A DNA stretch of 64,000 bases, taken from contig JANLSU010000081.1 in NCBI GenBank assembly GCA_031362565.1, forward strand, positions 63,003-127,002, written 5' to 3'. Position numbers and translations under genes: made by a program. This stretch comes from a bacterium. Its GTDB lineage: Bacteria; Krumholzibacteriota; Krumholzibacteriia; G020349025. The notes beneath the pieces were generated by a model, which saw nothing but the letters and a program-made list of their open reading frames with translations, had not been told where the DNA came from and searched no databases. Below are positions 35,835 to 52,593 of this stretch, piece by piece; the first letter of the stretch is position 1, and each line of letters opens with the position of its first letter.

Positions 35835-37016
35835 ATGCCGAGCACATTGGCGAGTCTGGCGGCGAATCGTGCGCCCGCCCGGCAGCGACGGCCGCTGTCC
35901 GCCGTGCCGCGCGCGCTGTTCTGGGACGCGAACAACAGTTCATCGCTGCTCGCTGCGCAGGCGTTCCTGCGTCACGGCTGGCAAATCGATTGGCTCGGCA
36001 GCGCGGATTCTCCGTGGCGGCACTCCGGCGTCTGGACGACACGCACGATTGTCTCGGGACTCAAGGACCCCGGCCTCGAGCGCATCTTCAACACGCATCC
36101 GCTTGACGCGCTGCTCTTGCACGGCGACAACCAGGTCCGGTGGATTCTCAGCAATGGTTCGCGCCTGCCGGCGCGGGCGCAGGCGCATCTTCCGAGTGCC
36201 GAGTCGCTCGAAATCGGCCTGTCGAAACAGCGTTCGATGCACCTGGCTTCGACTCTCGGTATCCCGGTGCTCGACACTGTGCTCTGCCGGTCGCGCGACG
36301 AGGTACCGGCGGCCGCGGCGCGCGTCGGCGCCGGGCGCCGCATCGTCCTGAAGGGCGAGGGCGGTGCTGCCGGCGATACGTTGGTGGGCCTCGCGGCGGG
36401 CGCCGTGCCGACGCTCGCGCAGTGGCGAGGCGTGGCCGCGCACGCACCGATCGTCATGCTGCAGAAGCGCATCACCGGTCCGCGCTACCTCGTCACGGTC
36501 GCATACGAGCGTGGGGTTGAACGCGCCGCCTGCGTGCACGAGAAAAGCATCGCCTACCCGAGCGATTTCGGTCCTTGCGCCTTTGGCGTCACGCGACGAT
36601 TGGACACACTGCACGACTACGCGGCGCGGCTCTTCGGGGCATTGCAGTGGCACGGCATCGCCGACGTCGAATTCCGGCAGGACGCCGAAGATGGACACTG
36701 GTACTTCATGGAGATCAACCCGCGCGTGTGTGCGACGCTGGGAATCCAAGAACGTGCTGGACTCGATCTCGTCGGCGCGTGGGTCGCGGTCTGCGAGGGG
36801 CGCGGCGCGGACGACGCACCTGGGCGCGACTATCGCGACGGTGTGACGTACGCCTGGGCGACGCGTGCACTCGCACGTTGGATGCGCGCGCCGTGGACGG
36901 TGCGCCCTTGGCAGATACGATGCCTGCTGTCGGCCAACTCCGACCTGCACCTCATGGAGCCTGCACTGCAGGCGAATGCGCTCCGCACGGCACTCTGGAT
37001 GGCGCGTCATGCTTGA
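35835..37016 (+). CDS. ATP-grasp domain protein (carboxylate-amine ligase-like), paralog 1
   Basis: LSK...LGIPV, IVLKGEGG, QKRITG, ADVEFRQD...YFMEINPR. Confidence 0.85.
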   Translation: MPSTLASLAANRAPARQRRPLSAVPRALFWDANNSSSLLAAQAFLRHGWQIDWLGSADSPWRHSGVWTTRTIVSGLKDPGLERIFNTHPLDALLLHGDNQVRWILSNGSRLPARAQAHLPSAESLEIGLSKQRSMHLASTLGIPVLDTVLCRSRDEVPAAAARVGAGRRIVLKGEGGAAGDTLVGLAAGAVPTLAQWRGVAAHAPIVMLQKRITGPRYLVTVAYERGVERAACVHEKSIAYPSDFGPCAFGVTRRLDTLHDYAARLFGALQWHGIADVEFRQDAEDGHWYFMEINPRVCATLGIQERAGLDLVGAWVAVCEGRGADDAPGRDYRDGVTYAWATRALARWMRAPWTVRPWQIRCLLSANSDLHLMEPALQANALRTALWMARHA

Positions 37017-38196
37017 GAGCCTGACCCTCGAGACCGCAGCACCGGCCCGTCGAGACGCGGCCGTGGGCGAGGCTCTCGTCTGGGATTCGACGAATACATC
37101 GGCCGTCGTCATCGCCCGCGGCTTGCGGCGGCTCGGATGGCGCGTGCACTGGCTTGGGACCCCCGTGTCGCCGTGGCGGAACTGCTCCGCTTTCAATGGT
37201 GAGCACTTCCTCGTACAAGGTCTCAACGACGAGAGATTGGCGACGGTGTTCGCGGCGCGCGAGTTCGACGCCGTGTTCCTGCACGGCGACGACCAGGTGC
37301 GCTGGATTCTGGAGCACTGGAACGCCGTACCGGAGCGGGTGCGTGCCGGACTCAGTGCCCCGGACGCGCTGCGAACTGCGCTCTCGAAGGAGCAGACGGC
37401 AAAGCTCGCCACGAGCCTCGGAGTCCCCGTCCTGCCCACGCTGCGCTGTAGCTCACCGGCGGAAGTCGCGGCGGCGGCGCAAACGCTGGCGCCGAACGGC
37501 GGTCAGATCGTGCTCAAGGGCGAAGGCGGCGCAGCAGGGTGCACCGTCGGGGCGGTCACTGCCGGCCGGGCACCGGATCATGACACGTGGGCACGCGTGA
37601 CGCGTTTTTCGCCAGTCGCACTCGTGCAGCGCCGCATCGCCGGGCCGCGGGTATTCGCGAGCGTGGTGTACGAGCACGGCGTCGAGCGCGCTGCATGCAT
37701 CCACGAGAAGATTGCCACTTTTCCATATGACTTTGGCCCCACGGCATTCGGGGTCACACGCCACGTCGACGCGGTGCATGACGATCTGCAGCGCATGTTC
37801 GGCGCCCTGCGCTGGCATGGCATCGCCAACGCCGAGTTCCGCCAAGACTCGAGCGACGGCCGCTGGTATTTCATGGAAATCAATCCGCGCGTCAACGCGA
37901 GCGCCGGCATTCAAGAAGCGGCGGGAATGGATATCGCGGCCACCTGGGCCGCCGTGTGCCACGGGGTGCGGCCGGCGCGGTGGCCGGGCCGCGAGTATCG
38001 TGACGGCGTGCGCTTCGCTTGGGGAGTGCGCGGCATCGCTCTCGCACTGCAAAGACCGTGGAGCGTTCCGGCATGGGGCCTGCGGAGCATGCTGGATGGC
38101 GGTTCAGATCTCGCCTATCTCGATCCGGCGCTGCGCTGGCGCGCGGCGCGTCTCGGACTATGGATGGCCCGTCAGAACCGATTCCGCCGGCACTGA
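37009..38196 (+). CDS. ATP-grasp domain protein, paralog 2
   Basis: Colinear with paralog 1 (LHGDDQVRWIL, IVLKGEGGAAG, ERAACIHEK, WYFMEINPRV); start overlaps the paralog 1 stop. Confidence 0.85.
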   Translation: MLESLTLETAAPARRDAAVGEALVWDSTNTSAVVIARGLRRLGWRVHWLGTPVSPWRNCSAFNGEHFLVQGLNDERLATVFAAREFDAVFLHGDDQVRWILEHWNAVPERVRAGLSAPDALRTALSKEQTAKLATSLGVPVLPTLRCSSPAEVAAAAQTLAPNGGQIVLKGEGGAAGCTVGAVTAGRAPDHDTWARVTRFSPVALVQRRIAGPRVFASVVYEHGVERAACIHEKIATFPYDFGPTAFGVTRHVDAVHDDLQRMFGALRWHGIANAEFRQDSSDGRWYFMEINPRVNASAGIQEAAGMDIAATWAAVCHGVRPARWPGREYRDGVRFAWGVRGIALALQRPWSVPAWGLRSMLDGGSDLAYLDPALRWRAARLGLWMARQNRFRRH

Positions 38197-39447
38197 ATGC
38201 TCGTCAAGCACCGGCAGCGCCGCCGCGGTCGTTGCCGGGGCCGTCGTAGATGCGCCGCGCTGCTTCGCGTACGCCGACAGTGTCTTCGGCGCCTCGCAAT
38301 CAAAACCAAGTCCCACGAGACGCATCGCATCACGATGTTCCAGGTGACGCCCAAGGCACGTCGCGAGCAGCCCATAGCCGTCGGTCACTTGCGGACTCTC
38401 CAGATCCCACATGTCGTTGGCCTCGACGAACACCGGCCCTGCCGGCGTGAAACCCAAGTCCCAGCCGAGGCAAGCGTTCATCGGCACGGCGCGCGCCGCG
38501 CGCCGCACGAGATCCACTGCATGATCCCACCCGGGAACGATCGTCCCCTCGATGGGCAAGCCGCTCGCGGGATGAGCCACGGTAGTACGAACAACGCCCG
38601 AAATCTTTTGCAGTCCGCTTCCCAGCCGCCCCGTCGCAGGGTCGATACGCGCCGCGATGTTCCCTTGACTGAAGTTGTCGACCGCGCTCATCCCCGTGCC
38701 GATGCGTAACACAGCACCGACGATCTCGACCTGACCGCGTTCATCCATCACCGTCACGATGCGCGCCGTGTGCAGGACACCCGGAGCGAAACGCGCCAGG
38801 GTCGGGTGCGGGCGCAAGCGCCGTTCAATGAGGTATCCCGCCGGCGTCATGCCGGCGTTCAAGCGCGCGGCAAGGGATTCAGCGCTAATCCGCTCCTCGC
38901 CCACGCCGCGCCAAGTGGCCGTGCCCAGACGCTCACCGAGCGCCACCAGACCTCGCCCACGGTTGCCGCGCGTCAGCTTGAAGACGACTTCTTCGATGCG
39001 TTCGCTCTCGAGCCACTGGAAGAGTTCGGCGACGCAGGTGAGCGGCTGCCCCGTCTCCGCCCGCCCGGCGGGACCGAAGTGACCGAGAAGCGGCGCGACC
39101 GGGAGCCCGGCCTGCGCCAGGAAGCGCGAGAAAACCAGTTTGTCCTGGGTCAGCGACCGGTAGGAGTACGGGTTGAACGCTTGGATCCATCGCCAATGGT
39201 CCATGACGCCCAAGTACTCGCACTTGGCGTCCCAGGGGACAGCGCGTGAGTCCAGACCATACTTGTAGTAATCCGTCGCGGTGATTCCTCGCCGTGCGAG
39301 GAGGACACACTGTTCCGCAATGCGGCGCGCAAGCGCTGCTTGACCGCCGTGGCGGAGGTGGATCGGGACCCCGGCCAACATCTCGGCCGCATATCGAGCC
39401 CAATTTCCACAGGCGCGCAGTTGTCGCATTTCCAGAGCCTTTTGCAT
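38158..39447 (-). CDS. Sugar-transfer-associated ATP-grasp domain protein (ATPgrasp_ST-like)
   Basis: QDKLVF, VFKLTRGNRGRG, LIERRLRPHP, LHTARIVT, VDNFSQG, GWDLGFTPAGPVFVEAN. Start 39447 or 39429. Confidence 0.8.
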   Translation of the reverse strand: MQKALEMRQLRACGNWARYAAEMLAGVPIHLRHGGQAALARRIAEQCVLLARRGITATDYYKYGLDSRAVPWDAKCEYLGVMDHWRWIQAFNPYSYRSLTQDKLVFSRFLAQAGLPVAPLLGHFGPAGRAETGQPLTCVAELFQWLESERIEEVVFKLTRGNRGRGLVALGERLGTATWRGVGEERISAESLAARLNAGMTPAGYLIERRLRPHPTLARFAPGVLHTARIVTVMDERGQVEIVGAVLRIGTGMSAVDNFSQGNIAARIDPATGRLGSGLQKISGVVRTTVAHPASGLPIEGTIVPGWDHAVDLVRRAARAVPMNACLGWDLGFTPAGPVFVEANDMWDLESPQVTDGYGLLATCLGRHLEHRDAMRLVGLGFDCEAPKTLSAYAKQRGASTTAPATTAAALPVLDEHSVPAESVLTGHP

Positions 39448-39491
39448 GCAATCCAGCTCATCGCCACCAGCACCATTCGTACCGCGTGATG

Positions 39492-41027
39492 TCAGGAGAG
39501 GGCGAGCGCCGCCGGCCGCAGCTCGGCGTCGATGTCGCGGCCCATGCGCGACGAGATCTCGACAACCGCCTGGACGTCCGCATTCCGCGTGTTGAAGTTC
39601 ACGATGCAGGCGCGCAGCACGTAACGGCCGCGAATCACCGCATTCGAGACGAAGGCTTCGCCACCCACCTGCATGCGGGCAAGCACTTCCCTGTTGAGTG
39701 TATCGAGGTACTCGTCGACCGCCGCTTCGCCGATGCGGCCGCGCAGATCGGGCGGCACACAGCGGTAGGTCGTAATGCTCAAGCTGCAGGTCATGAATTC
39801 GAGGTCCGGCGTGCGGCGAACCGCTGTGGCCATCGATTCTGCAAGGGCGATGTCGTCGGCGATCATGCGCCGGTAGCCGGCAGCGCCGGCCTGCCGGAGT
39901 GCCAGCCACACTTTGAGGGCCCGGAAGCCGCGCGAATTCTGCGGGCTGAAGTCGACGTAGTTCAGCGCGCTCTCGCCAAAGTGGTAGTAGGGCGGATGGT
40001 ACGAGAACGCTTTGCGCATCAACTCGACATCCCGCACCAACGCGCAACCGGCTTCGAGCGGCGCGTACAGCCACTTGTGCGGGTCGACGGCGACCGAATC
40101 GGCGTCACTCAAGGCGCGTAGGTCGGCTGGAACACCATCCACCGCGGCCGCGAATCCGCCGTAAGCGCCATCGACGTGGAACCAGAGCCGCTCTTTCTTG
40201 CATAACGCGGCGATGGCCGCGAGCGGATCGATCGCGCCCGTACTCACGGAACCCGCGGTGCCCACCACCATGAACGGCAGGTCGCCGGCGGCGCGGTCGG
40301 CGGTGATTTGCCGTTCGAGCTGCGCCACGTCCATACGCAGGTCGTCGCCGGTCGGGATGAACCGAATCGTGTCGGTCCCCAGCCCCGCGAGGTCGGCCGC
40401 TTTGTGAATCCAGGTATGCGTTTCCGCCGATGCGTAGGCCCGCAACGTCCGGCCGCCTGCCAACCCCTTGGCGCGCACATCCCAGTCGGCCATCGCCGCT
40501 CGGGCCGCCCAAAGGCCAACCATGTTCGCCATGTTGCCGCCACTCACGAGCACGCCGCCGCAATCGGCCGGGTAGCCGATCAACTCGGCGATCCAGCGCG
40601 CCGTTTGCGATTCGATTTCGCTCGCAGCCGGCGACAGGATCCACGCGCCGCAGTTCGGGTTCACAGCTGCTGCGAGCAGATCCGCGAGCATGCCGATCGG
40701 CGCCGGCGATGACGTGATGTAACCCAGAAATCGCGGGTGGCCGTTGAACAATGAATGGTCGAACAGGAGGCGCGCGGTTTCTGCGAGCAGCGGCCCCGGC
40801 GCGAGCCCGTGTTCAGGCAGCGGGCCATTGAGGTCCAGCGCGGCGCGCACCGCGGCGGGCGATTCGCCTGGGGTCACGGGCCGCGATGGCACCGAAGCCA
40901 ACAGTTCGGCGAGTTGGTCGACGCGCCCGTGCCCAGCGGCGCGAAACGCGGCGGGATCCATTCGGAGCGGCACATCGCGGGTCGTTGCATCAGGCGTCGA
41001 ATTCGGCGTCGTTGGATTCAGTGTCAC
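39492..41027 (-). CDS. Group II PLP-dependent amino acid decarboxylase
   Basis: HPRFLGYI, SGGNMAN, GTAGSVSTGAID, HVDGAYGG, DPHKWL (PLP Lys), SRGFRALKVW. Confidence 0.93.
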   Translation of the reverse strand: MTLNPTTPNSTPDATTRDVPLRMDPAAFRAAGHGRVDQLAELLASVPSRPVTPGESPAAVRAALDLNGPLPEHGLAPGPLLAETARLLFDHSLFNGHPRFLGYITSSPAPIGMLADLLAAAVNPNCGAWILSPAASEIESQTARWIAELIGYPADCGGVLVSGGNMANMVGLWAARAAMADWDVRAKGLAGGRTLRAYASAETHTWIHKAADLAGLGTDTIRFIPTGDDLRMDVAQLERQITADRAAGDLPFMVVGTAGSVSTGAIDPLAAIAALCKKERLWFHVDGAYGGFAAAVDGVPADLRALSDADSVAVDPHKWLYAPLEAGCALVRDVELMRKAFSYHPPYYHFGESALNYVDFSPQNSRGFRALKVWLALRQAGAAGYRRMIADDIALAESMATAVRRTPDLEFMTCSLSITTYRCVPPDLRGRIGEAAVDEYLDTLNREVLARMQVGGEAFVSNAVIRGRYVLRACIVNFNTRNADVQAVVEISSRMGRDIDAELRPAALALS

Positions 41028-41057: not shown

Positions 41058-44000
41058 TTACGGACGCACGACCACTGCTTTGCGGGTGGCGACGAATTCA
41101 TCGGCCCGCAGGCGCACCAAGTACACGCCGCGCCGCACGAGGGCGCCGGTCGCGTCGCGCCGGTCCCAACTGACGGCATAAAGTCCCGCTCCCCGCGTGC
41201 CTTGCTCGAGGCTGCGGATGCGGCGCCCGGCCACGTCGAAGATCTCCAAACGCAAATCACGCGCACCGCGCTCCAATGCGTACTCGATGCGGACGACCGT
41301 GCCATCCTGCCACGGTTCGCCGAGGAAAGTGTGCAAGACAGCCGCGGGCGCCGGCGGCATGTCCGGCACGTCGGTCGGCACGAGCGTCACGACGGTGTAG
41401 ACGAAAACGCGCCCGTCCGGCGGGTACGTGCTCGCACCGACCAACACGTCACGGTGCCCATCTCCGGTCACATCCCGATCCGCTGCCACGGCCGCACCGA
41501 AACGGGTTCCGGGGGTTCCCAGCAGCACGGCGGCCGGAAGGTCGTCGGCATTTGAACCTCCAGCGAAAATCAGCACCCGCAATGCTGCACCGCCGACGGG
41601 GTTCAGCGTCCCCACTGCCAGATCCGCGTCGCCATCGCCATCGAGGTCGCCGGCCGACAGACTGGCGCCCAGTTGCTCACCCGCCGACGGCGAGTCGTAC
41701 ACCCAGTCGGCCGTCACATTCAACACGCCTGGACCGCCGCGAAACACGCTGACGCGACCGCCGATGCCGCGCCCCGGCGCGCCAACAATAACGTCGGACC
41801 AGCCGTCACCGTCGAAGTCGGCGGCGGTGATCGCATCCCCGAACCGGCCGCCATCGCCGTTCAGTACCAAGTCCGGCGAGCCGTCCACCGACGGGCCCCC
41901 GAAGTACACGTACACGGCGCCAAAATCGGTGCCGCCGACATCATTGTCCGGCGCCCCGACAAGGAAGTCTTGGTATCCGTCGCCGTTCAAGTCGCCGCCA
42001 CGCGCCGCACGCGTGCCGAATCTCTCGCCGGGAGACTGCGCCACCAGGAAGCGGTCGGGATTCGTGTCGAAGGCCGGACCGCCAAAGTACAAGAACCCAA
42101 GTCCATTGAATGCGCCGGGGATGCCGATGAGCAGGTCGTCGTACCCGTCGGCATTGACATCACCGACGCCGGCCAGCCCCTCACCCATGTGACCGCCGGG
42201 ACTTGAACCGGTGAAAACGCGGTCCGCGAAAACGTCGAGATTAGGGCCACCCAGGTACGCGTACAGCCTTCCCCCATCCAGCGCGCCCATGTCCGCGAGC
42301 GGGGCGGCCACCACGAAATCACCGTAGCCATCACGATTCAGGTCGCCGGCGGCGAGTGCCACGCCAAAGCCGTCGCCGGAGACTTCACCCCCGATCCCCA
42401 ATTCCGGCGAACCACCGAGCGCCGTACCGCCGAACTCCAAATGCAGCCGGCCCACGCCGGGCGGGCTGATCGATTGTGCACCCGCGACCAGGTCGGCGAT
42501 TCCATCGCCGCTCAAATCCGCAGTTGTAGCCAGCGGCTCGCCGAATTTGGTTTCGAAGGCAGCCGCTTCAATGAAAAATTCCGGCGGTGAGATGGTGCCC
42601 GCGGTCGCCCGCGCCGTGCACGAGAACACCTGGTGGCAGGTGGCATCTTCTGCTACGAACATGATCGTGCTGATTTGGAACTGACCCACCGGCAATGTTG
42701 GCGCCGTGAGACTAAAGCCAACGAACGCAATTTGCCCACTGGGCACCGTGATGTTCTGCGCCACAGGCGTTCCCCAGCCGCGCGAGTCTTGGATGGTGTA
42801 GGCGAACGTTTGCGCCGACAGCGACGTGTTGAGAAGCTGGAACGTCGTCGGGCGTGCGACGCCGCTCGGCGCCAAAAAGTCGGCGGGACAAGTGACCCCG
42901 GCCGTCACCATCGCCGGGAGGACGCGCGAGACGCAGGCGATCTGGCTCAGCGGACAGCCGGTGATCGCCACTTGAAACCGCACCGAGTCGATCTGCGTGA
43001 AGCAGAGCGGCGGGACTTGGAGAGTGATCACCGCGCTTGCCGTTTGGCCCGGCGCCACCGTCTGCGTGCCGGTGACCGGCGCACCCCAGCCACGCGTGTC
43101 GTTGAGTGAGTATTCGTACGTGCGTGCGAACAAGCCCTCATTGGTCCAACGGGCGCGGCGCTGCACCGTGACGTTGTCGCCGACGGTGGTATCCGCCGGG
43201 CATTGCAACACCGCGGCATGAAACGGCACGACCACGTGCGACGTGCATTGGAACTCACGAGCCGGACACGCCGTACTCGTGACATGCAGGGTAACTGCAT
43301 CGTCTTGCGCTACGCACACCAGGGCCGGCGTCGTGAGTGCGTAATCGACGGTGTGTGTTTGCCCAACGCCCAAATTCACGCTGCCCGACTGCGGCGCACC
43401 CCAGCCGAAGGCGTCGCCGGCGGAATAGTTGTACGTCAGCGAGGTCGTCGACGAGTTCGTGAAGTGGAGCAGGCGGTGGACACTTTGGCCGGCGTCGACC
43501 GTCGTGTCGACGGCACACGCAACCGTCACCGCGGAGACCGCCGTGACCGAAAGGGTCTTCGACACTTGAACCCAAGCGCTGGGCGCCGCGCATTGGTCGC
43601 GGACGCGGGCGATCATCGTCAGCACATCGCCGCACTGCGCACCGACCGGCAACGGGCAGACCCGAGTCATGCAGAATACGCCGCCCGGGACCAGCGTCAC
43701 GGTGCTCGATCCAGTGGGGCAACCGTTGGCCCAGCCCGACGTTTCGTAAACGTAGTTGCGCGTCGCCTGAGTCACATTCTGGAAGCAGAACTGCAACTGG
43801 GCCTGTTCCCCCGGCTCAGGGAGCGTGTCCAGCAGCGCGCACGTGGTGATGACCGGCGGAGCCACTGTCCGCAGAACCGTCACTTGTTTCGTCAGTGCCG
43901 GGCTAGCGCACCCCGGCGGGATCAACGAGATGGTCACCGTGCTGCCGGCCGCACATGAAGCGCCGCTCGCAGTCACCGGCAGGTCGAAACACGCCGAGTC

Positions 44001-45422
44001 GCCCGACGCAATCGTCGGACTGGCGTCGAAGGGGCTCACCCAGCCCTGATCGTCGGCGATGTGCACGTTGTACACCAAGGCCGTGAACTCGTCGTTGTGC
44101 ACACACAGGTGCAGATTCACTGTCGCGCCGGCCGCGACCGTCAACTGCGCGGGCGCGGTGATGCGGATGCGATCCGGCCGCTCCAAGTACGCGCGCCCGA
44201 CACCACCTTGCAGCGGCGCGCCCACCAAAAGCTCCGCGGTTCCGTTGCCATCGGTATCCGGCCCAACGGCGCCGGCGGAGGCAAAGCCATCGAGAGGCAC
44301 CTCCGCCGTCCAAATCTGTTCCGGCACGTCGTCGACGGCCGGCCCACCCTCATAGATGCGTACCTCGCGCCCCGATACACCAACGACGAAATCCCCGAGC
44401 CCGTCGCCGGAGAGGTCGCTACCCGCGGCCACGAAGCGGCCGAAATTTGTCGTCAGTCCGCCCAGGAACAAATCGGCGAATTCGTCGCTCGACGGCCCGC
44501 CGTAAAAGACGTACGCCGTGCCGCCAGTGCCGCCGAAAGTGGGAGCTCCCGCGACGAGGTCGGGCTGCGCATCGCCGTTCACGTCGCCGACCGCGAGCGC
44601 TTCGCCGAAACCAGTTCCCACGCCGCCCGCGATCAGAACCCGGTCCGCGAGTGCGTCGAACCCAGCGCCGCCCCAGAACAGCTTCGTGCGTGCGCCCGCC
44701 CCGCTGCCGGGGGCGCCGGCGGCCAAATCCGCGACCCCATCGCCATTGAGGTCACCGAGCGCGACCGCCGCGCCCAACTGTTCGCCAAACGCACCGTTAG
44801 CCGTCAGACTCGGAATCGTCGGCGGAGGCGCGGCGCCAAAGTAGACGAACACCTTACCTTCAAGCCCGCTGGGCGAAGCTCGCGGCGCACCGACCACCAG
44901 GTCTGCGCCGCCATCCTGATTCAAGTCCGCTCCGCCCCCCAAGGCGGTGCCGAAGCGCCCGCCAGGCACTGGACCATTGAGGATGACATCCGCCACCGCG
45001 TCGAATGCCGGACCTCCAAAATAGATGTACACGCGGCCGGCGTCGGTGCCTGCGAGGTCGTCGAAGGGTGCGCCCACGGCCAGGTCGCGGAATCCATCGC
45101 GGTTCCAGTCGCCGATCGAGGCCACCGCCGCGCCGAAGCGATCGCCCGGGGCAACGCCCACGAGCGTGAAGTCGGGAGTCACATTGCGCGGCGCACCGCC
45201 GCGGTATACGTAGACCCGGCCCGCCCCCGTGGTGGTGGTCTGCGACGCTACGGCCCAATCGCCGAATCCGTCCGCATCGATATCGCCGGCGAGAACGCAC
45301 GCATTACCGAAGCTCTGTGCAACGGAGGGAGCGAACAGAATACTCGAACACGCGGTGTGGGCCGCCGGTGCGGCGGCGACAAGCAGCACGGCGCTGGAGA
45401 GCACCAATCGAGTGGCACGCAT
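41058..45422 (-). CDS. Large secreted FG-GAP repeat protein: two propellers, central Cys-containing Ig-like repeats, C-terminal FlgD-Ig-like domain
   Basis: Many FG/LG...GD[LVIW]NxDG..D..VGAP...G.VYVY.G repeats in two blocks; C-terminal IFDVAGRRIR...WD...G...GVY. Confidence 0.9.
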   Translation of the reverse strand: MRATRLVLSSAVLLVAAAPAAHTACSSILFAPSVAQSFGNACVLAGDIDADGFGDWAVASQTTTTGAGRVYVYRGGAPRNVTPDFTLVGVAPGDRFGAAVASIGDWNRDGFRDLAVGAPFDDLAGTDAGRVYIYFGGPAFDAVADVILNGPVPGGRFGTALGGGADLNQDGGADLVVGAPRASPSGLEGKVFVYFGAAPPPTIPSLTANGAFGEQLGAAVALGDLNGDGVADLAAGAPGSGAGARTKLFWGGAGFDALADRVLIAGGVGTGFGEALAVGDVNGDAQPDLVAGAPTFGGTGGTAYVFYGGPSSDEFADLFLGGLTTNFGRFVAAGSDLSGDGLGDFVVGVSGREVRIYEGGPAVDDVPEQIWTAEVPLDGFASAGAVGPDTDGNGTAELLVGAPLQGGVGRAYLERPDRIRITAPAQLTVAAGATVNLHLCVHNDEFTALVYNVHIADDQGWVSPFDASPTIASGDSACFDLPVTASGASCAAGSTVTISLIPPGCASPALTKQVTVLRTVAPPVITTCALLDTLPEPGEQAQLQFCFQNVTQATRNYVYETSGWANGCPTGSSTVTLVPGGVFCMTRVCPLPVGAQCGDVLTMIARVRDQCAAPSAWVQVSKTLSVTAVSAVTVACAVDTTVDAGQSVHRLLHFTNSSTTSLTYNYSAGDAFGWGAPQSGSVNLGVGQTHTVDYALTTPALVCVAQDDAVTLHVTSTACPAREFQCTSHVVVPFHAAVLQCPADTTVGDNVTVQRRARWTNEGLFARTYEYSLNDTRGWGAPVTGTQTVAPGQTASAVITLQVPPLCFTQIDSVRFQVAITGCPLSQIACVSRVLPAMVTAGVTCPADFLAPSGVARPTTFQLLNTSLSAQTFAYTIQDSRGWGTPVAQNITVPSGQIAFVGFSLTAPTLPVGQFQISTIMFVAEDATCHQVFSCTARATAGTISPPEFFIEAAAFETKFGEPLATTADLSGDGIADLVAGAQSISPPGVGRLHLEFGGTALGGSPELGIGGEVSGDGFGVALAAGDLNRDGYGDFVVAAPLADMGALDGGRLYAYLGGPNLDVFADRVFTGSSPGGHMGEGLAGVGDVNADGYDDLLIGIPGAFNGLGFLYFGGPAFDTNPDRFLVAQSPGERFGTRAARGGDLNGDGYQDFLVGAPDNDVGGTDFGAVYVYFGGPSVDGSPDLVLNGDGGRFGDAITAADFDGDGWSDVIVGAPGRGIGGRVSVFRGGPGVLNVTADWVYDSPSAGEQLGASLSAGDLDGDGDADLAVGTLNPVGGAALRVLIFAGGSNADDLPAAVLLGTPGTRFGAAVAADRDVTGDGHRDVLVGASTYPPDGRVFVYTVVTLVPTDVPDMPPAPAAVLHTFLGEPWQDGTVVRIEYALERGARDLRLEIFDVAGRRIRSLEQGTRGAGLYAVSWDRRDATGALVRRGVYLVRLRADEFVATRKAVVVRP

Positions 45423-45584
45423 TGTTGCCGTCCCCTGGAAGGTGCGGATGAGGATACTGCGGGACGGCGGTGGCGGCAAGCTTCACGGTAGTCACCGCAC
45501 CCCCCATCATCGAGAGTAAGATGCCAGCGTCCTGGGTTGGCCTCGCCCCCCCGGACTCTTGAGAAGCGAACCAAGGAGACTGCG

Positions 45585-47908: not shown

Positions 47909-50900
47909 ATGTACACGGACGAACAGACCGCCGCCCGCGTTCGGTTGCTGCACGGCATCTTCGAACAGCAGGCGCGCACTTACCCGACCGGCATCGCGCT
48001 CGACGTACCCCCGACGGGTGCTGGTGTGCCGCGCCGCCAGCTCACCTACGCCGAAGTGAATGCCGCTGCCGACGCCTTGGCCGTCCGGCTCGCAACCTAC
48101 GTGCATGGGGAATGTTTGGTGGCGATCATGCTGCCACGCGCCGGCACGGAACTGTTCGTCGCGCAGCTCGCCATTATGAAGGCTGGTGCGGCCTGGACGT
48201 GTATCGAGCCCTCGACGCCCGATGAGCGGCTGCGTTTCTTGATCGACGATTCGCGTGCGGTGGCCGTGATCGCCGACGATGCGAGTGGCGACCGGCTTGA
48301 ATCCATCGGCTTCCCCGAGCCTCGCATCGTGAGCCTGAACAAGGTCGACGTTGCTTCGATCCCCGCGGCTCCGCGCCGCGCCACTCCCGCTTGGCTCGGT
48401 CCGGAGACGCTGGCCTACGTCATCTATACCTCGGGCACGACGGGACACCCCAAAGGGGTCATGATCGAGCACCGTAGCGTCGCCAACCTCGTGCTCGCGG
48501 ATGCCGGCTACTTCGACCTGCGCCCGGGCGACCGCATCGCCCAAACTTCGTCGGCGGCCTACGACTCCTCCGTGGAAGAGGTGTGGCTCGCGTGGGCCAA
48601 GGGCGCCACCGTCGTCGTGGTGGATGATGAACGGGTTCGCTCCGGCCCCGACCTGTTGCCCTGGTTACGCGCCGAAGGGATCACCGTCTGGTGTCCCGCT
48701 CCAACCCTGCTCCGGATGGTGTGCAGCGACAATCCGCAGCGCGACTTGCCCGATATCCGCCTGCTGTACGTGGGCGGCGAGGAGCTGACTCCGGACGTGG
48801 CGCAGCTTTGGGCGCCCGGCCGCCGGTTGGAGAACGGCTATGGACCCACTGAATGCACCGTGACCGTGGTCCGCACGACGGTGCACGCCGGAGAACCGGT
48901 GACGATCGGCAGGCCGGTGCCGGGCAATCGCGCCTTCGTGGTGAATTCCGAACTCCAGGAAGTACCCGAAGGCGAGATCGGCGAACTCTGCATTGCCGGC
49001 GAGAGCGTCGCGCGCGGCTATCTCGGGCGACCGGAGTTGACCGCCGAGCGCTTTATCGACCACGCGCGCTTCGGCCGCGTCTATCGGACCGGAGACTTGG
49101 TACAGATGGTGCCGGGCGGGGCGCTGGCCTATCTCGGCCGCGCCGACACGCAGGTGAAGATTCGCGGCCACCGGATCGAGTTGACGGCCATCGAAAGCGA
49201 GCTGTGCCGCTACCCGGGCATTCTCGGGGCGGCGTGCTGCGTGCAAGCGAACGGCGCCGGACCCGAACTCGTGGCCTTCGTGGTGACCGAGAACGGCTCC
49301 GAGCCGGAACGGGAAGCGATCGGTCACTGGCTGCGCCGCACTCTGCCCGAGCCAATGGTGCCGTCACACATCGCCCGGCTCGACGCACTGCCGCGCGGCG
49401 CGCTCTCGGGCAAGCTCGATCGCGGCGCGTTGCCGAAAGTGACCCACGCCCCGCGCGCCACACAAACCGGACGCGCACCCGCCGGCGCCGCCGAGCAGGC
49501 CGTCGCGAATGCATTCGCGCACCAGCTCACCGCGGTGGAGGACATTCCGGCCGAGGCCGATTTCTTCCTCGATCTGGGCGGCAATTCGCTCGTCGCGGCG
49601 CAGGTCATTTCGGAGTTGCGGCGCGACGCGCGCACCGCGTCGCTCACCGTGCGTGATTTGTATGAAACGCGCACCGTAGCCGGACTGGCGGCACGCGTGC
49701 CGGAATTCGCGCCGCACGCGCCGGGTGCCAAAGCTGCACCGGCGCAACCAACTGCCGCATCGCTCGTCGCCGACATCGGCAGGCGCGTGTCACCGCACGC
49801 CGGGTGGGGTGCGGCAGCGCAATTCGCATTCCTGGCGTTGGCATTGCTGGTGACTGTGAACGCGGCGTGGTTTGTAGTTTTCGACATCGCGGCAGCGATG
49901 GCGAATGCCGTCGGAACGCGACTGTTCATGCTCCTGCTCCCCGTTCTGATCCTTGCGGCGGCGCTCACCTGGACACTGCTCGCCACCGCACTCACGGTGG
50001 TCGCCAAGCGCGTCCTCATCGGGCGTTACACCGCCGGCCGCCACCCCTACATGGGCTCAATGTATGTGCGTCACTGGATCGTGAGCCAGTTTGCCCGCAG
50101 TGTGTCGTGGGACTTGCTCGAGAGCATCGGGCTGCGCGCCCACGTGCTGCGCGCGCTCGGCGCGAAGATCGGTGCCGAGGTGTATTTGCACCGCGGCGTG
50201 GGACTGCAGCAAGGTGGCTGGGACCTGCTCGAGATCGGCGACGGTGTCGCACTCGGGCGCGACGTGTCGCTCGGGCTCGTGACGTACGACCGGCAGCAGC
50301 TCGTCTTCGCACCGGTGTCGATTGGCGCCAACGCCACGCTGGACACGCGCTCTCGCATGGCTCCCGGCAGCCGAATTGGAGAGGGTGCGTTCCTGGCGGC
50401 GCTGGCATGGCTGCCAAGCGGCGCGAGTGTGCCGGCCGGTGAACGTTGGGACGGGGTGCCGGCGCGACCCGTAGGCCAAGCGCCTCCACCACCCGTGCCT
50501 TCGCTGGAGTCGCTGCAGCCAAGTCTGTGGCACAAGGCAGTGTTGCTGGCGGCAAAAACAGTCGCGGCGCAAATCGCCTTCCTGCCATGGTTCGCTCTCG
50601 CCGCTGTCGTGTTGTCGGCATGGAGGAGCGGCAACGGTTCGTCGACATTCCTCGAGTTGCCGTTGCTCGCGCTCGCCGGCGCCCTGGTCACGTGCTACGC
50701 CCTGTCGTTACCACTGCAAGCAGTGTTGTGCCGGCTTCTCGGACGCGTGCGCCCCGGCATCTATCCGCTGCACGGACGCACGGCGCTCACGGTGCGCTTG
50801 AAGGAGCGCCTTGTCGAAACTGCCAACGTAGCGCTGTCCGGTACGCTCGCGTGGCCGGTGTGGCTGCGCTGGGCCGGCATGCGCGTCGGCCGGCGATGCG

Positions 50901-51907
50901 AGATCAGCACCATCATGGAAGTGACGCCGGAATTGGTGGAGATCGCCGACGACTGCTTCTTTGCCGACGGCATCTACTTAGGACGGCCGCTCGTGCATCG
51001 TGGGCATCTCTATTGCGAACGCACGGTGTTCGAGCATCACACGTTCCTCGGCAACCACGCCGTGATTCCGGCCGGCGCCCAACTGCCGGACAACGTTTTG
51101 CTCGGTGTGTGCACGGTGGCCGACCCGGAACGCATCCGGCCCGACACCGGTTGGTTCGGACATCCAGCGTTCGAGCTTCCCCGCCGCGAGTTGGTTGCTG
51201 CCGACGACAGCCTGACGTTCAGTCCGTCGCCACTCCGCGTCCTCAACCGCGCGCTGTGGGAGAGCTCACGGCTCTTCCTGCCGGTGCTGCCGGCATTCGT
51301 CGTGGCGTTCTGGGCCACCGAGTTGCCGCGCCTGGCAGAGCACTGGGCGACGCCGGCGCTGCACCTCTGGGTGCTGCCGCTCGCAGCGCTCGCGACGGCG
51401 GCGTTCCTGTGCGCGCTCACGGTTGCGACCAAGTGGCTGTTGCTGGGGCGCATGCAGGAGGCGCGACACGTGTTGTGGTCGTGCTGGTGCAGCCGTTGGG
51501 ACTTCCTGTTCGAGGTGTGGTCGGCGTACGCGCGGCCGGTCATCGATACATTAGAGGGCACGCCGCTCGTGGCGTGGTGGCTGCGCGCCATGGGAGCCCG
51601 CATCGGGCGGCGCGTCGTGTTCGGAACCAACCTCTCGCAAGTGGTGGACCCGGACATGATCGAGATCGAAGACGACGCCACGGTGTCGTGCCATCTGCAG
51701 TTGCATAGCTTTGAAGACCGGGTGCTGAAGCTCGGCAAGACACGCATCGGCGCCGGCAGCACGGTCGCGGCCGGCGCACTCCTTCTCTACGGGGCACGGA
51801 TCGAAGCCGGCGCGCACGTGGCGGAGCAGAGCGTCGTGATGAAGCACGAGCACCTGCTGCAAGGCCAGGCGTACGAAGGCGCACCAACCCGGCCGGTGGG
51901 CGCTTGA
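47909..51907 (+). CDS. Pls/PosA-family membrane-bound single-module NRPS (homopoly-amino-acid synthetase-like)
   Basis: A domain (YVIYTSGTTGHPKG, NGYGPTE, YRTGDL, QVKIRGHRIEL, SGKLDR); T domain (DFFLDLGGNSL); three TM pairs, each followed by an acyltransferase-like domain (RALGAKIG, RWAGMRVG, RAMGARIG...HSFEDRVLK). No C or TE domain. Confidence 0.9.
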   Translation: MYTDEQTAARVRLLHGIFEQQARTYPTGIALDVPPTGAGVPRRQLTYAEVNAAADALAVRLATYVHGECLVAIMLPRAGTELFVAQLAIMKAGAAWTCIEPSTPDERLRFLIDDSRAVAVIADDASGDRLESIGFPEPRIVSLNKVDVASIPAAPRRATPAWLGPETLAYVIYTSGTTGHPKGVMIEHRSVANLVLADAGYFDLRPGDRIAQTSSAAYDSSVEEVWLAWAKGATVVVVDDERVRSGPDLLPWLRAEGITVWCPAPTLLRMVCSDNPQRDLPDIRLLYVGGEELTPDVAQLWAPGRRLENGYGPTECTVTVVRTTVHAGEPVTIGRPVPGNRAFVVNSELQEVPEGEIGELCIAGESVARGYLGRPELTAERFIDHARFGRVYRTGDLVQMVPGGALAYLGRADTQVKIRGHRIELTAIESELCRYPGILGAACCVQANGAGPELVAFVVTENGSEPEREAIGHWLRRTLPEPMVPSHIARLDALPRGALSGKLDRGALPKVTHAPRATQTGRAPAGAAEQAVANAFAHQLTAVEDIPAEADFFLDLGGNSLVAAQVISELRRDARTASLTVRDLYETRTVAGLAARVPEFAPHAPGAKAAPAQPTAASLVADIGRRVSPHAGWGAAAQFAFLALALLVTVNAAWFVVFDIAAAMANAVGTRLFMLLLPVLILAAALTWTLLATALTVVAKRVLIGRYTAGRHPYMGSMYVRHWIVSQFARSVSWDLLESIGLRAHVLRALGAKIGAEVYLHRGVGLQQGGWDLLEIGDGVALGRDVSLGLVTYDRQQLVFAPVSIGANATLDTRSRMAPGSRIGEGAFLAALAWLPSGASVPAGERWDGVPARPVGQAPPPPVPSLESLQPSLWHKAVLLAAKTVAAQIAFLPWFALAAVVLSAWRSGNGSSTFLELPLLALAGALVTCYALSLPLQAVLCRLLGRVRPGIYPLHGRTALTVRLKERLVETANVALSGTLAWPVWLRWAGMRVGRRCEISTIMEVTPELVEIADDCFFADGIYLGRPLVHRGHLYCERTVFEHHTFLGNHAVIPAGAQLPDNVLLGVCTVADPERIRPDTGWFGHPAFELPRRELVAADDSLTFSPSPLRVLNRALWESSRLFLPVLPAFVVAFWATELPRLAEHWATPALHLWVLPLAALATAAFLCALTVATKWLLLGRMQEARHVLWSCWCSRWDFLFEVWSAYARPVIDTLEGTPLVAWWLRAMGARIGRRVVFGTNLSQVVDPDMIEIEDDATVSCHLQLHSFEDRVLKLGKTRIGAGSTVAAGALLLYGARIEAGAHVAEQSVVMKHEHLLQGQAYEGAPTRPVGA

Positions 51908-52593
51908 CGCCCTCGGCGAGCACGACGCGCGTTGCGGGCCCGCCGGCAGGCATCGTAGATTTGTGGTGCGTGCATCTCGATGCACCGAACTTCCCGGACG
52001 CCGCACTCGCGGCAACGCTCGACCCTTCGGAGCAACAACACGCGGCGTGCATGCGGGTCGGCGGCCGCGCCTGGGCTTCCGGGCGTGGCGCACAGCGCGT
52101 GATCCTCGCGAGTTATCTCGAGGTGCCGGCGAGCGCGCTGGAGTTTTTCGCCGCGCAGTCCGGCAAGCCTGGGCTCTCGAACGCGCCCAGCCTACAATTC
52201 TCGTTCGCGCGCACCGATGGTCTGGCGGTCGTCGCCGTTGCCAGTGACCGCGAGGTTGGCGTCGACGTCGAGCGTGAGAACGACCGCACCGACATCGACG
52301 GCGTGGCGCAGGAGTTCTTGCCGGCGGGCGAGGCCGCCGCACTCGAGGCAACGCCACTCGGTCAACGCCGCAGCGCTTTCTTTGGCGCCTGGGCGCGTCA
52401 CGAAGCGCGCCTCAAGCTCGAGGGGCAGGGGCTTACCGGTCGCACCTGGGACGGCGCGCGGCCAAGCGCGGCGCTCGTCGTCGTGCGCGCACTCGCCCTA
52501 CCGCCCGGCTTCGCCGGCGCGATCGCGGCCGTGAACGACACCTGGACGGTACGCGTCAAGGAATTCCCAGTCCTAGCGGCGCGGCTACGCTAG
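51904..52593 (+). CDS. Sfp-type 4'-phosphopantetheinyl transferase
   Basis: GKP, VGVDVE, FFGAWARHEARLK; TTGA overlap with the NRPS stop. Confidence 0.85.
   Translation: MTPSASTTRVAGPPAGIVDLWCVHLDAPNFPDAALAATLDPSEQQHAACMRVGGRAWASGRGAQRVILASYLEVPASALEFFAAQSGKPGLSNAPSLQFSFARTDGLAVVAVASDREVGVDVERENDRTDIDGVAQEFLPAGEAAALEATPLGQRRSAFFGAWARHEARLKLEGQGLTGRTWDGARPSAALVVVRALALPPGFAGAIAAVNDTWTVRVKEFPVLAARLR

Follow-up and report, generated by a model that had tools for sequence, protein, structure and literature searches.

The locus raises the question of which monomer is loaded, and which polymer is made, by a Pls/PosA-like synthetase with its own phosphopantetheinyl transferase (PPTase). The window is the whole stretch of DNA that was analysed, 64,000 nucleotides long. 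The features discussed below are as follows.

47909..51907, + strand: Pls/PosA-like (CHPA) synthetase with a Bdello_A-type pocket, 1332 aa
47960..49396, + strand: adenylation (A) domain, AMP-binding (PF00501, 254.8 bits) and AMP-binding_C (PF13193, 34.5 bits)
48563..48865, + strand: pocket residues D219, S220, E223, C262, Y287, G289, G310, V318 and T319, with K502 at 49412-49414
49499..49699, + strand: thiolation (T) domain (PF00550, 37.4 bits), phosphopantetheine site Ser560 at 49586-49588
49793..51904, + strand: membrane polymerising domain, a unit of two long helices and a left-handed beta-helix present three times (TIGR02353, AlphaFold, Foldseek)
51476..51520, + strand: clade signature W-S-C-W-C-S-R-W-D (W1193, W1197, D1198, W1204), in place of a Glu-bearing motif of Lys/Orn-code enzymes
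51647..51718, + strand: D1247 (Glu in Lys/Orn-code enzymes), D1249 and the family-wide Q-x-H-x-F-E-D-R motif (H1266)
51904..52593, + strand: Sfp/HetI-like 4'-phosphopantetheinyl transferase, 4-nt overlap with the synthetase stop (TTGA)
G000:C110:11611-12114, another contig than the synthetase: BurB-like SET methyltransferase ortholog (228 bits)

Synthetase and neighbouring genes

The synthetase gene was intact, with an ATG start, a GGAG-like site 5' of the start and no stop inside. Pfam search matched AMP-binding, AMP-binding_C, PP-binding and Hexapep, and the same search for Condensation and Thioesterase domains gave no match. A single A and a single T domain without condensation or thioesterase domain agrees with the CHPA definition of Patel & Gulick (2023). 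The other CHPA marks were also found: a code that begins with Asp (D219) and has Glu (E223) as its third residue, and, by AlphaFold and Foldseek, a C-terminal domain of about 700 aa with three membrane-helix pairs and three left-handed beta-helices.

Profile TIGR02353 (Pls/PosA family, equivalog domain) was aligned over positions 5-694 of 695 at 390-393 bits (390.4 and 393.3), which is below its cut-off of 423.1 bits; close relatives scored 363-383 bits and a protein with the code DLESIGTVIK 622 bits. AlphaFold predicted the C-terminal 704 aa (pLDDT 91, pTM 0.90) as one unit occurring three times, a pair of long helices with short ones and a beta-helix, and hydropathy alone showed 5 TM-like peaks at the threshold used. 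The sole Foldseek matches of this model were left-handed beta-helix acyltransferases and gamma-carbonic anhydrases, and neither sequence nor fold search found a solved structure for the polymerising domain. The synthetase is confirmed as an intact A-T-(2 TM + left-handed beta-helix)x3 enzyme. It means that the original prediction, a Pls/PosA-type enzyme of this layout with acyltransferase-like domains and no C or TE, is borne out by Pfam, TIGR02353, AlphaFold and Foldseek, the full profile being covered though under its cut-off.

The predicted coupled PPTase was also found, overlapping the synthetase and with a putative TTG start; apart from it the genome had just one gene of the PPTase family, and a condensation domain was absent from the whole genome. 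It scored 35 bits with PF01648 and 83 bits with the HetI-like model. Sfp-type PPTases carry G-x-D-x-E, W-x-x-x-E-A-x-x-K, a CoA-binding Ser-His and a Lys before the catalytic Glu. The first two were present as VGVDVE and WARHEARLK, while FSFART stood instead of the CoA-motif Ser-His and H replaced K before the catalytic Glu, departures shared by most close relatives. A PPTase gene lay 3' of the synthetase in 12 of 63 loci and was fused to it in P0006.

The other neighbours encoded a GT4 glycosyltransferase, an SDR, a Ysc84 protein and a repeat protein of no assigned family, and Pfam found no peptidase among the neighbouring genes. The absence of a degrading aminopeptidase, noted in the original prediction, therefore stands at this locus, but it is no distinguishing feature, because PosA is a single-gene operon and three of four Streptomyces synthetases are without the Pls peptidase context (PMC8117764). 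No riboswitch was found in 8 loci, no sigma-70 promoter was matched, and terminators were not in excess.

Pocket code and the same-code enzyme Bdello_A

Phmmer alignments to 7WEW (D-A-E-S-I-G-T-V-V) and PosA 8G95/8G97 (D-M-E-H-N-G-T-V-S) gave the ten-residue code DSECYGGVTK, exactly as it had been read by eye. The pocket is indeed not that of Pls, but the supposed novelty did not survive, since the identical code is already printed for Bdello_A (OFZ39577.1, Bdellovibrionales bacterium), a CHPA-synthetase homolog (Patel & Gulick 2023, PMC10522769). The A domain of Bdello_A alone was assayed for adenylation with 7 substrates, Met and S-methylmethionine (SMM) not among them, and gave Arg 2.8-3.2, Lys 0.58-0.72, Orn 0.21-0.43, and Dab, Dap, beta-Lys and citrulline <=0.28 (PMC10522769). 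The L-Arg activity was described as modest, no polymer was demonstrated, and 'a larger analog' was suggested as substrate, a small residue at code position 2 being taken to mean a long substrate; the word 'methyltransferase' occurs 0 times in that text and no partner gene is reported (PMC10522769). Because this same-code enzyme preferred L-Arg, modestly, and no diamino acid, the argument that Glu239 fits a diamino acid, and with it the proposed assay panel of Lys, Orn, Dab, Dap and beta-Lys, would miss the likely substrate.

According to PMC12283262, the code DVESIGGVTK takes homoarginine, and it is alike with DSECYGGVTK at 7 of 10 positions. Compared with the Arg consensus, DSECYGGVTK agrees at 235, 239, 301, 330, 331 and 517, with Asp278 replaced by Cys.

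A multi-phylum clade with its own polymerising-domain signature

The clade was defined by DSE[C/T/M][Y/W]GG together with monophyly in A-domain and C-terminal trees, for which 92 of 151 rows were used, Bdello_A itself not included. The same 39 rows with a Bdello_A-type code sat in a clade of 41 in the A tree (support 1.0) and of 40 in the C-terminal tree (support 0.97). Judged from sequence, the synthetase belongs to this monophyletic clade of several phyla. Proteins with Pls or PosA codes, used in place of the full-length Pls and PosA, both absent from the trees, lay outside it in both trees, so the synthetase is neither Pls proper nor PosA proper; their identity with it was 35-43% (A) and 27-35% (C-terminal).

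Clade-specific residues in the polymerising domain were W982, Y1023, H1050, W1117, W1193, W1197, D1198, W1204 and D1247. The domain has kept its three repeats, as well as the residues that are invariant across the family, and H1266 is probably catalytic by analogy with LbH acyltransferases. A second membrane acyltransferase-like domain (HGSNAT_cat/DUF418) was fused or adjacent in L049, L090, L081, P0129, P0133 and P0172, and no conserved lipid or glycan gene was found in the clade neighbourhoods.

The synthetase occurred in 51/251 genomes of one Planctomycetota class, 25/206 of an Eisenbacteria-labelled phylum and 2/208 of its own phylum; the metagenome scan pattern for its code had position 322 fixed in advance. 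The clade is common, yet the scores of this synthetase and of its near kin are too low for the Pls/PosA name.

A SET methyltransferase partner

Among clade loci with >=700 bp of upstream sequence, a SET gene lay directly 5' of the synthetase in 29 of 80 (26/71 clusters at 90%, 20/47 at 70%); the two genes are side by side in Planosporangium thailandense TBRC 5610 (L012), which is in culture and not a pathogen. In the Planctomycetota class 42 genomes carried the SET and 39 both genes (30 adjacent, 9 on separate contigs), and the dependence was one-way, with the synthetase in 39/42 SET genomes and the SET in 39/51 synthetase genomes; the SET profile was built from synthetase neighbours, two source genomes are among the 251, and without them the first figure is 37/40. 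The Eisenbacteria-labelled phylum had 22 SET genomes, 17 of them with the synthetase, all on separate contigs; here as above the genomes counted are related and not independent.

In its own phylum the clade SET was found in 1/208 genomes, and this is the genome with the locus (228 bits; next SET 83). In the tree it falls within SETs that neighbour a synthetase (support 0.92-0.96), and its contig C110 has a composition typical of the genome, but it is unlinked to the synthetase, and contexts of such trans-SETs are variable. The SET was absent from 12/51 and 8/25 synthetase carriers in the two groups, and from the 97% complete carrier G001. It is dispensable, since carriers without it exist and keep the code, which was the same or near-identical in 12 SET-less loci inspected directly. 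NCBIfam had no named family for the SET, and no description of the pair was found in the literature covered, subscription journals lying outside it.

Other candidate partners were rejected. A class I methyltransferase like 8HKR (protein lysine methyltransferase, E 3e-25) lies directly 5' of the synthetase in the SET-less genome G637 and was considered as a SET replacement; its orthologs occurred in 31/251 genomes, 4/12 SET-less and 17/39 SET-carrying synthetase genomes, and among the 14 further loci with an ortholog that the search listed, none shared its contig with a listed synthetase. For the PLP decarboxylase at 39492-41027 of the window, a homolog lay near the SET in just 2/22 trans-SET loci. 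Deoxyhypusine synthase (2 loci), a fused MFS/spermidine synthase (3) and an M20 peptidase (2) recurred too little. No fusion of SET and synthetase turned up among 7999 scored longer candidates, which is weak evidence, or among the other proteins analysed.

The best match of the SET family was BurB, both by sequence (E 1e-17, 27% identity) and by structure (Z 13.6, rmsd 4.3, 134 aligned; next Z 10.4). This rank may arise because BurB alone has a solved structure within a broad group of bacterial SETs; on the SET profile other SETs of the phylum scored 60-83 bits and BurB 67 bits. The family and BurB share the R-x-[YH]-[ST]-x-Q...H motif, Tyr124 and the Thr-Glu after it, and the partner SET has the free-amino-acid binding loops of the BurB/MSMT fold. 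In histone SETs a Tyr faces the lysine amine; like BurB, the partner family lacks it, with L/I/V/F in 116/119. Phe at the SET multiplicity position allows repeated methylation (switch rule), and it was present in 120/121. At the position of BurB Ser88 the family has Trp in 109/114, and about 11 residues are inserted before the N-H-S-C motif, which makes a substrate other than Met plausible. BurB itself methylates a free amino acid, at the Met sulfur, for an NRPS-PKS line, and the product is turned into DMSP, which is then taken up by an A domain that lacks Asp235 (PMC7496086, PMC12542666).

Substrate and product

We tentatively favour, at somewhat short of even confidence, that the synthetase activates N-epsilon-methyl-lysine made by the SET and polymerises it into a short methylated cationic polymer. 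More generally, the monomer is likely a cationic amino acid that is both long and bulky. The distant SET would methylate free lysine, and the PPTase would prime Ser560. In the A domain D219 would hold the alpha-amine and E223 the side-chain cation. Room and a cation-pi floor for the methylated head may come from G310, where Pls/PosA have Thr, and from Y287. The pseudo-trimeric beta-helix domain, with its H1266 motif, would then pass each unit to the growing chain, and the clade-specific Trp/Asp residues may suit a methylammonium group. With mono-methyl lysine, isopeptide links bearing an N-methyl group could form; tri-methyl lysine would allow only alpha linkage or a place at the chain end. 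Arg would be tolerated as a mimic, and carriers without SET would fall back on it.

This reading is favoured by the order Arg > Lys > Orn and the 'larger analog' suggestion for Bdello_A, adjacency and co-occurrence of SET and synthetase (this genome included), the BurB precedent of free-amino-acid methylation, the likeness to the homoarginine code, and the Trp/Asp set. Against it, Arg is the single measured preferred substrate of a same-code enzyme, BurB methylates Met sulfur, the lysine-facing Tyr is missing, and the SET is dispensable and unlinked here. A rival view, which we regard as unlikely, takes L-Arg or N-methyl-Arg as the monomer of an alpha-linked oligo-arginine, with Trp/Asp binding the acceptor guanidinium and a SET that adds optional decoration. 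Arg was the only substrate well above background, six code positions agree with the Arg consensus, the code matches the homoarginine code at 7 of 10, SET-less carriers keep the code and the dependence is one-way. However, the activity was modest and without polymer (PMC10522769), Asp278 is Cys, and characterised family products all use side-chain amines. To our knowledge, guanidine methylation by a SET domain is without precedent.

If the SET instead acts as BurB does, on Met sulfur, the synthetase would load SMM and give a sulfonium alpha-polymer or an acylated acceptor. The top rank of BurB, the shared motifs, the missing lysine-facing Tyr and the absence of Met and SMM from the substrates tried speak for this, but we consider it improbable: Bdello_A activity grows with side-chain length (Orn<Lys<Arg), Ser at position 2 implies a long substrate, the insertion and Trp are missing from BurB, BurB may rank first only as the solved member, and no decarboxylase partner recurs. 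Hardly better placed is a slow ordinary epsilon-poly-lysine-like chain, whose carrier-bound unit or finished chain (alpha-amines or terminal amine) is methylated by the SET, which would tune charge or length. Bdello_A does activate Lys above background, D219/E223 and the Q-x-H-x-F-E-D-R motif are common to Lys-code enzymes, and a dispensable SET with Phe at the multiplicity position would fit; Lys is, however, about fivefold below Arg, pocket and polymerising domain both diverge clade-wide, and in a BurB-type fold the free amino acid lies buried beneath SAM. It is quite improbable that polymerase function was lost and one cationic aminoacyl unit is moved onto a lipid, polyamine or glycan acceptor in the membrane or at the cell surface. 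Fold kinship with LbH acyltransferases, the HGSNAT_cat/DUF418 domains and the esterification of alcohols by Pls itself point that way, while the retained repeats and invariant residues and the lack of a conserved lipid or glycan gene point against it.

Returning to methyl-lysine, the product is likely a methylated, positively charged amino-acid polymer new to description. More boldly, and with more doubt, the multi-phylum SET and Pls-like system may make a permanently charged polymer (poly-N-methyl-lysine or sulfonium) through a Trp-lined acceptor site, the first outside the diamino-acid isopeptide rule, and work even when unlinked. Such a system, if real, would bring a methylated cationic biopolymer into a family prized for antimicrobials of food grade and for cell-penetrating polymers, and bacterial SET domains would gain a new activity on small molecules. 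The true substrate of same-code enzymes is a question Patel & Gulick left, and the SET partner gives a short testable list: mono-, di- and tri-methyl-Lys, methyl-Arg, homoarginine and SMM.

Comparison with known systems

Pls (A domain 7WEW), PosA (8G95-8G98) and the synthetase are all A-T-(2 TM + beta-helix)x3 without C or TE, with D235, E239, G301, V330 and K517 in common, and in the PDB the pocket segment is matched best by Pls and PosA. The codes differ, DAESIGTVVK in Pls and DMEHNGTVSK in PosA against DSECYGGVTK, and the synthetase has a coupled PPTase and a SET partner whereas Pls has a peptidase. Bdello_A has the same ten-residue code and family architecture. BurB of Burkholderia thailandensis (9L4T/9L4V) is, like the partner family, a small stand-alone SET domain, and a precedent for a SET acting on a free amino acid before a thiotemplate enzyme; the A domain of its line is without Asp235, whereas that of the synthetase keeps it.

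Synthetase architecture and neighbourhood

The locus contains two coupled genes:

47909-51907, forward strand: synthetase ORF (ATG start), 1332 aa
51904-52593, forward strand: PPTase gene, overlapping the synthetase stop by four bases

Pfam assigned AMP-binding, AMP-binding_C, PP-binding and Hexapep domains to the synthetase and found neither a condensation nor a thioesterase domain. AlphaFold modelling of the C-terminal 704 residues (54-row alignment; pLDDT 91, pTM 0.90) gave a threefold repeat in which each unit has two long helices, some short ones and a beta-helix, and the PDB matches of this part were left-handed beta-helix acyltransferases and gamma-carbonic anhydrases, nothing else. Domains and repeats together uphold the originally predicted A-T-(2TM + acyltransferase-like)x3 layout lacking C and TE domains. 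The NCBIfam Pls/PosA profile TIGR02353 matched over full length with 390 bits, missing the 423.1 cut-off. The enzyme has the broad CHPA-synthetase architecture and belongs to the Bdello_A-code clade; it would work in the manner of Pls/PosA but is neither Pls nor PosA proper.

A 5' fragment of a second synthetase copy (about 75 codons and upstream DNA, 73% nucleotide identity) was found at G000:C65:1741-2029 (-), locus L016. It is truncated by an element resembling an insertion sequence, whose 433-aa ORF is transposase-like and, by its motifs, IS91-like; an 87% copy lies on contig C18. Upstream of the synthetase locus, 36865-41027 encodes a pair of ATP-grasp proteins, one of them associated with sugar transfer (PF14397), together with a PLP decarboxylase of group II that does not recur as a partner. 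A secreted-type protein of 1473 aa, encoded at 41058-45479 (-), has numerous FG-GAP repeats and, at its tail, a FlgD Ig-like domain.

Adenylation pocket

The 132-residue pocket segment matched best in PDB to 7WEW (Pls) and PosA, and alignment to these entries gave D-S-E-C-Y-G-G-V-T-K, the same code as had been read by eye. DSECYGGVTK was already printed for Bdello_A, whose code is identical to that of this synthetase (Patel & Gulick 2023, PMC10522769). The source data of that paper give, for the Bdello_A A domain, 2.8-3.2 with Arg, 0.58-0.72 with Lys, 0.21-0.43 with Orn and <=0.28 with each of Dab, Dap, beta-Lys and citrulline, these seven being the whole panel; its authors proposed a larger analogue as the true substrate. 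In a survey of A-domain codes (PMC12283262), the Arg consensus agrees with this code at 6 positions, and the homoarginine code DVESIGGVTK is identical at 7.

Clade and polymerising domain

The exact code was present in 105 of the 120 homologues listed (4 partial), in 81 of 94 loci (2 of the 94 lack the A domain) and, among the 151 rows of a 50%-representative search, in 39, many rows being partial; the metagenome search pattern pre-set code position 322. Trees were built with FastTree from 92 rows with both domains and full code, rooted on a Lys-code row and leaving out full-length Pls, PosA and Bdello_A. With pocket columns removed, the A tree placed 39 DSE[C/T/M][Y/W]GG rows within a clade of 41 (support 1.0), and the C-terminal tree placed the same 39 within a clade of 40 (support 0.97), with one apparent chimera, P0144 (DFEALGTVTK adenylation domain, clade-type polymerising domain). 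Member labels include Eisenbacteria, Thermoanaerobaculia, Blastocatellia, Gemmataceae, Planctomycetota, Planosporangium, Leptospiraceae and Myxococcales.

Both D1020 and the Q-x-H-x-F-E-D-R motif are common to the polymerising domains of the clade and of Lys/Orn-code enzymes. The clade domain has gained W982, Y1023, H1050, W1117, W1193, W1197 and W1204, however, and has Asp for Glu at D1198 and D1247. Some members of about 1700 aa (L049, L090, L150, L081, P0129, P0133, P0172) have a HGSNAT_cat/DUF418 membrane acyltransferase-like domain fused or adjacent after the polymerising domain, possibly a tailoring or export step. Sister to the clade is a relative of 2226 aa (P0211, P0395) from a marine microbial eukaryote transcriptome set, which has a pair of adenylation domains and the code DAECYGGCVK. 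One Eisenbacteria-labelled genome (L127, G208:C454) carries, beside its clade synthetase, a second one that scores as canonical (622 bits, code DLESIGTVIK) and is accompanied by a separate PPTase.

Coupled PPTase

Since the genome has only one further PPTase-family gene and no condensation domain, the PPTase is likely dedicated to the synthetase. It retains the acidic motifs that bind Mg, and the usual Ser-His is missing. A downstream PPTase occurs in 12 of the 63 clade loci with sufficient DNA on that side; none of the clade loci compared had both this and an upstream SET. The synthetase relative P0006 has a fused PPTase.

SET partner

Among the 80 clade loci whose upstream DNA extends for 700 bp or more, 29 encode a small SET protein (PF00856) directly upstream of the synthetase; after clustering at 70% identity this holds for 20 of 47 clusters. 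This genome has its SET on contig C110 (228 bits), unlinked to the synthetase; neither C110 nor C66 departs from the genome's usual composition. Of the 208 genomes in the phylum, no other gave a clade-SET match; 45 of the 208 have weaker SETs (<=83 bits) and 2 have the synthetase. The C110 SET nests among synthetase-adjacent SETs, beside those from genomes of the closest synthetases. Another, unrelated SET-domain gene (G000:C14:19902-20204) is not detected by the clade profile.

Co-occurrence of SET and synthetase (raw counts over kin, non-independent genomes of unstated completeness)
Phylum of an Eisenbacteria-labelled genome, 206 genomes: synthetase 25 (5 further matches excluded as non-clade or uncertain), SET 22, both 17, on separate contigs in every case
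Planctomycetota class, sample of 251 genomes: synthetase 51, SET 42, both 39 (by coordinates, 30 adjacent and 9 on another contig); minus two profile-feeding genomes 49, 40 and 37

The dependence is one-way: SET is absent in 12 of 51 Planctomycetota carriers, 8 of 25 in the Eisenbacteria-labelled phylum and genome G001, and carriers without it retain the same or a near-identical code.

Gln, His, Glu and post-SET Cys are near-invariant across 121 family members, and the Phe and Tyr of an F-x-Y motif occur in 120. L/I/V/F stands at the position of the Tyr that faces lysine in histone SETs. BurB ranked first for the profile (E 1e-17) and for the AlphaFold model made on relative L072 (pLDDT 93; Z 13.6, rmsd 4.3, 134 aligned; runner-up Z 10.4). 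Because of these matches and the residue pattern, the SET substrate is likely a free amino acid. BurB is described as converting free Met to S-methylmethionine and holding the substrate backbone through main-chain contacts (PMC12542666, PMC7496086). Distant BurB-like SETs (about 94 bits, without the family's insertion) are fused in P0401-P0409 to the C-terminal end of cyanophycin synthetase, which is likewise a polymerase of amino acids. The proteins P0397-P0400 (1450-1580 aa) consist of BurB-like SET domains in tandem, up to ten of them, one eukaryotic example with an added D-Ala-D-Ala-ligase-like domain.

Proposed pathway and alternatives

The system as observed consists of the architecture, the code, the coupled PPTase and the co-occurring SET. 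In the proposed pathway, the PPTase would prime Ser560; the A domain may accept a long bulky cation, D219 binding the alpha-amine and E223 the cation, while G310 and Y287 would provide space and a cation-pi contact; and the membrane domain would join units at H1266, the putative acceptor site being lined by Trp/Asp.

We tentatively favour methyl-lysine as monomer, at somewhat short of even confidence; it accords with the trend by side-chain length (Orn<Lys<Arg), with the SET fold and with the aromatic residues gained. However, carriers can do without the SET, whose nearest known relative targets Met sulfur, and a lysine-methyltransferase from one SET-less genome was ruled out as stand-in (4 of 12 SET-less versus 17 of 39 SET-carrying synthetase genomes). 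An alpha-polymer built on Arg, the residue giving the highest Bdello_A values, comes next and is rather unlikely. Methylation after assembly and S-methylmethionine as monomer are both improbable, to about the same degree, and least probable is a single acyl transfer in place of polymerisation. A BurB-like SET that methylates a free amino acid and a Pls-like enzyme that polymerises it to a permanently charged polymer would form a two-enzyme system, which we regard as possible but less likely than not.

Comparison with known systems

No account was found, in the literature accessible to us, of a clade-wide SET partner, a SET copy unlinked from the synthetase, a PPTase-coupled subclade or rebuilt putative acceptor residues; subscription journals and the PMC10522769 supplement may bear on this, and related literature includes PMC8117764, PMC8506220 and PMC9606270. 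Different from BurB, the SET family has Trp and an insertion of about 11 residues in place of the Ser88 region. The pocket code is already published, and what would go beyond it is the SET partner with its unlinked copy here, the PPTase-coupled subclade and the putative acceptor residues.
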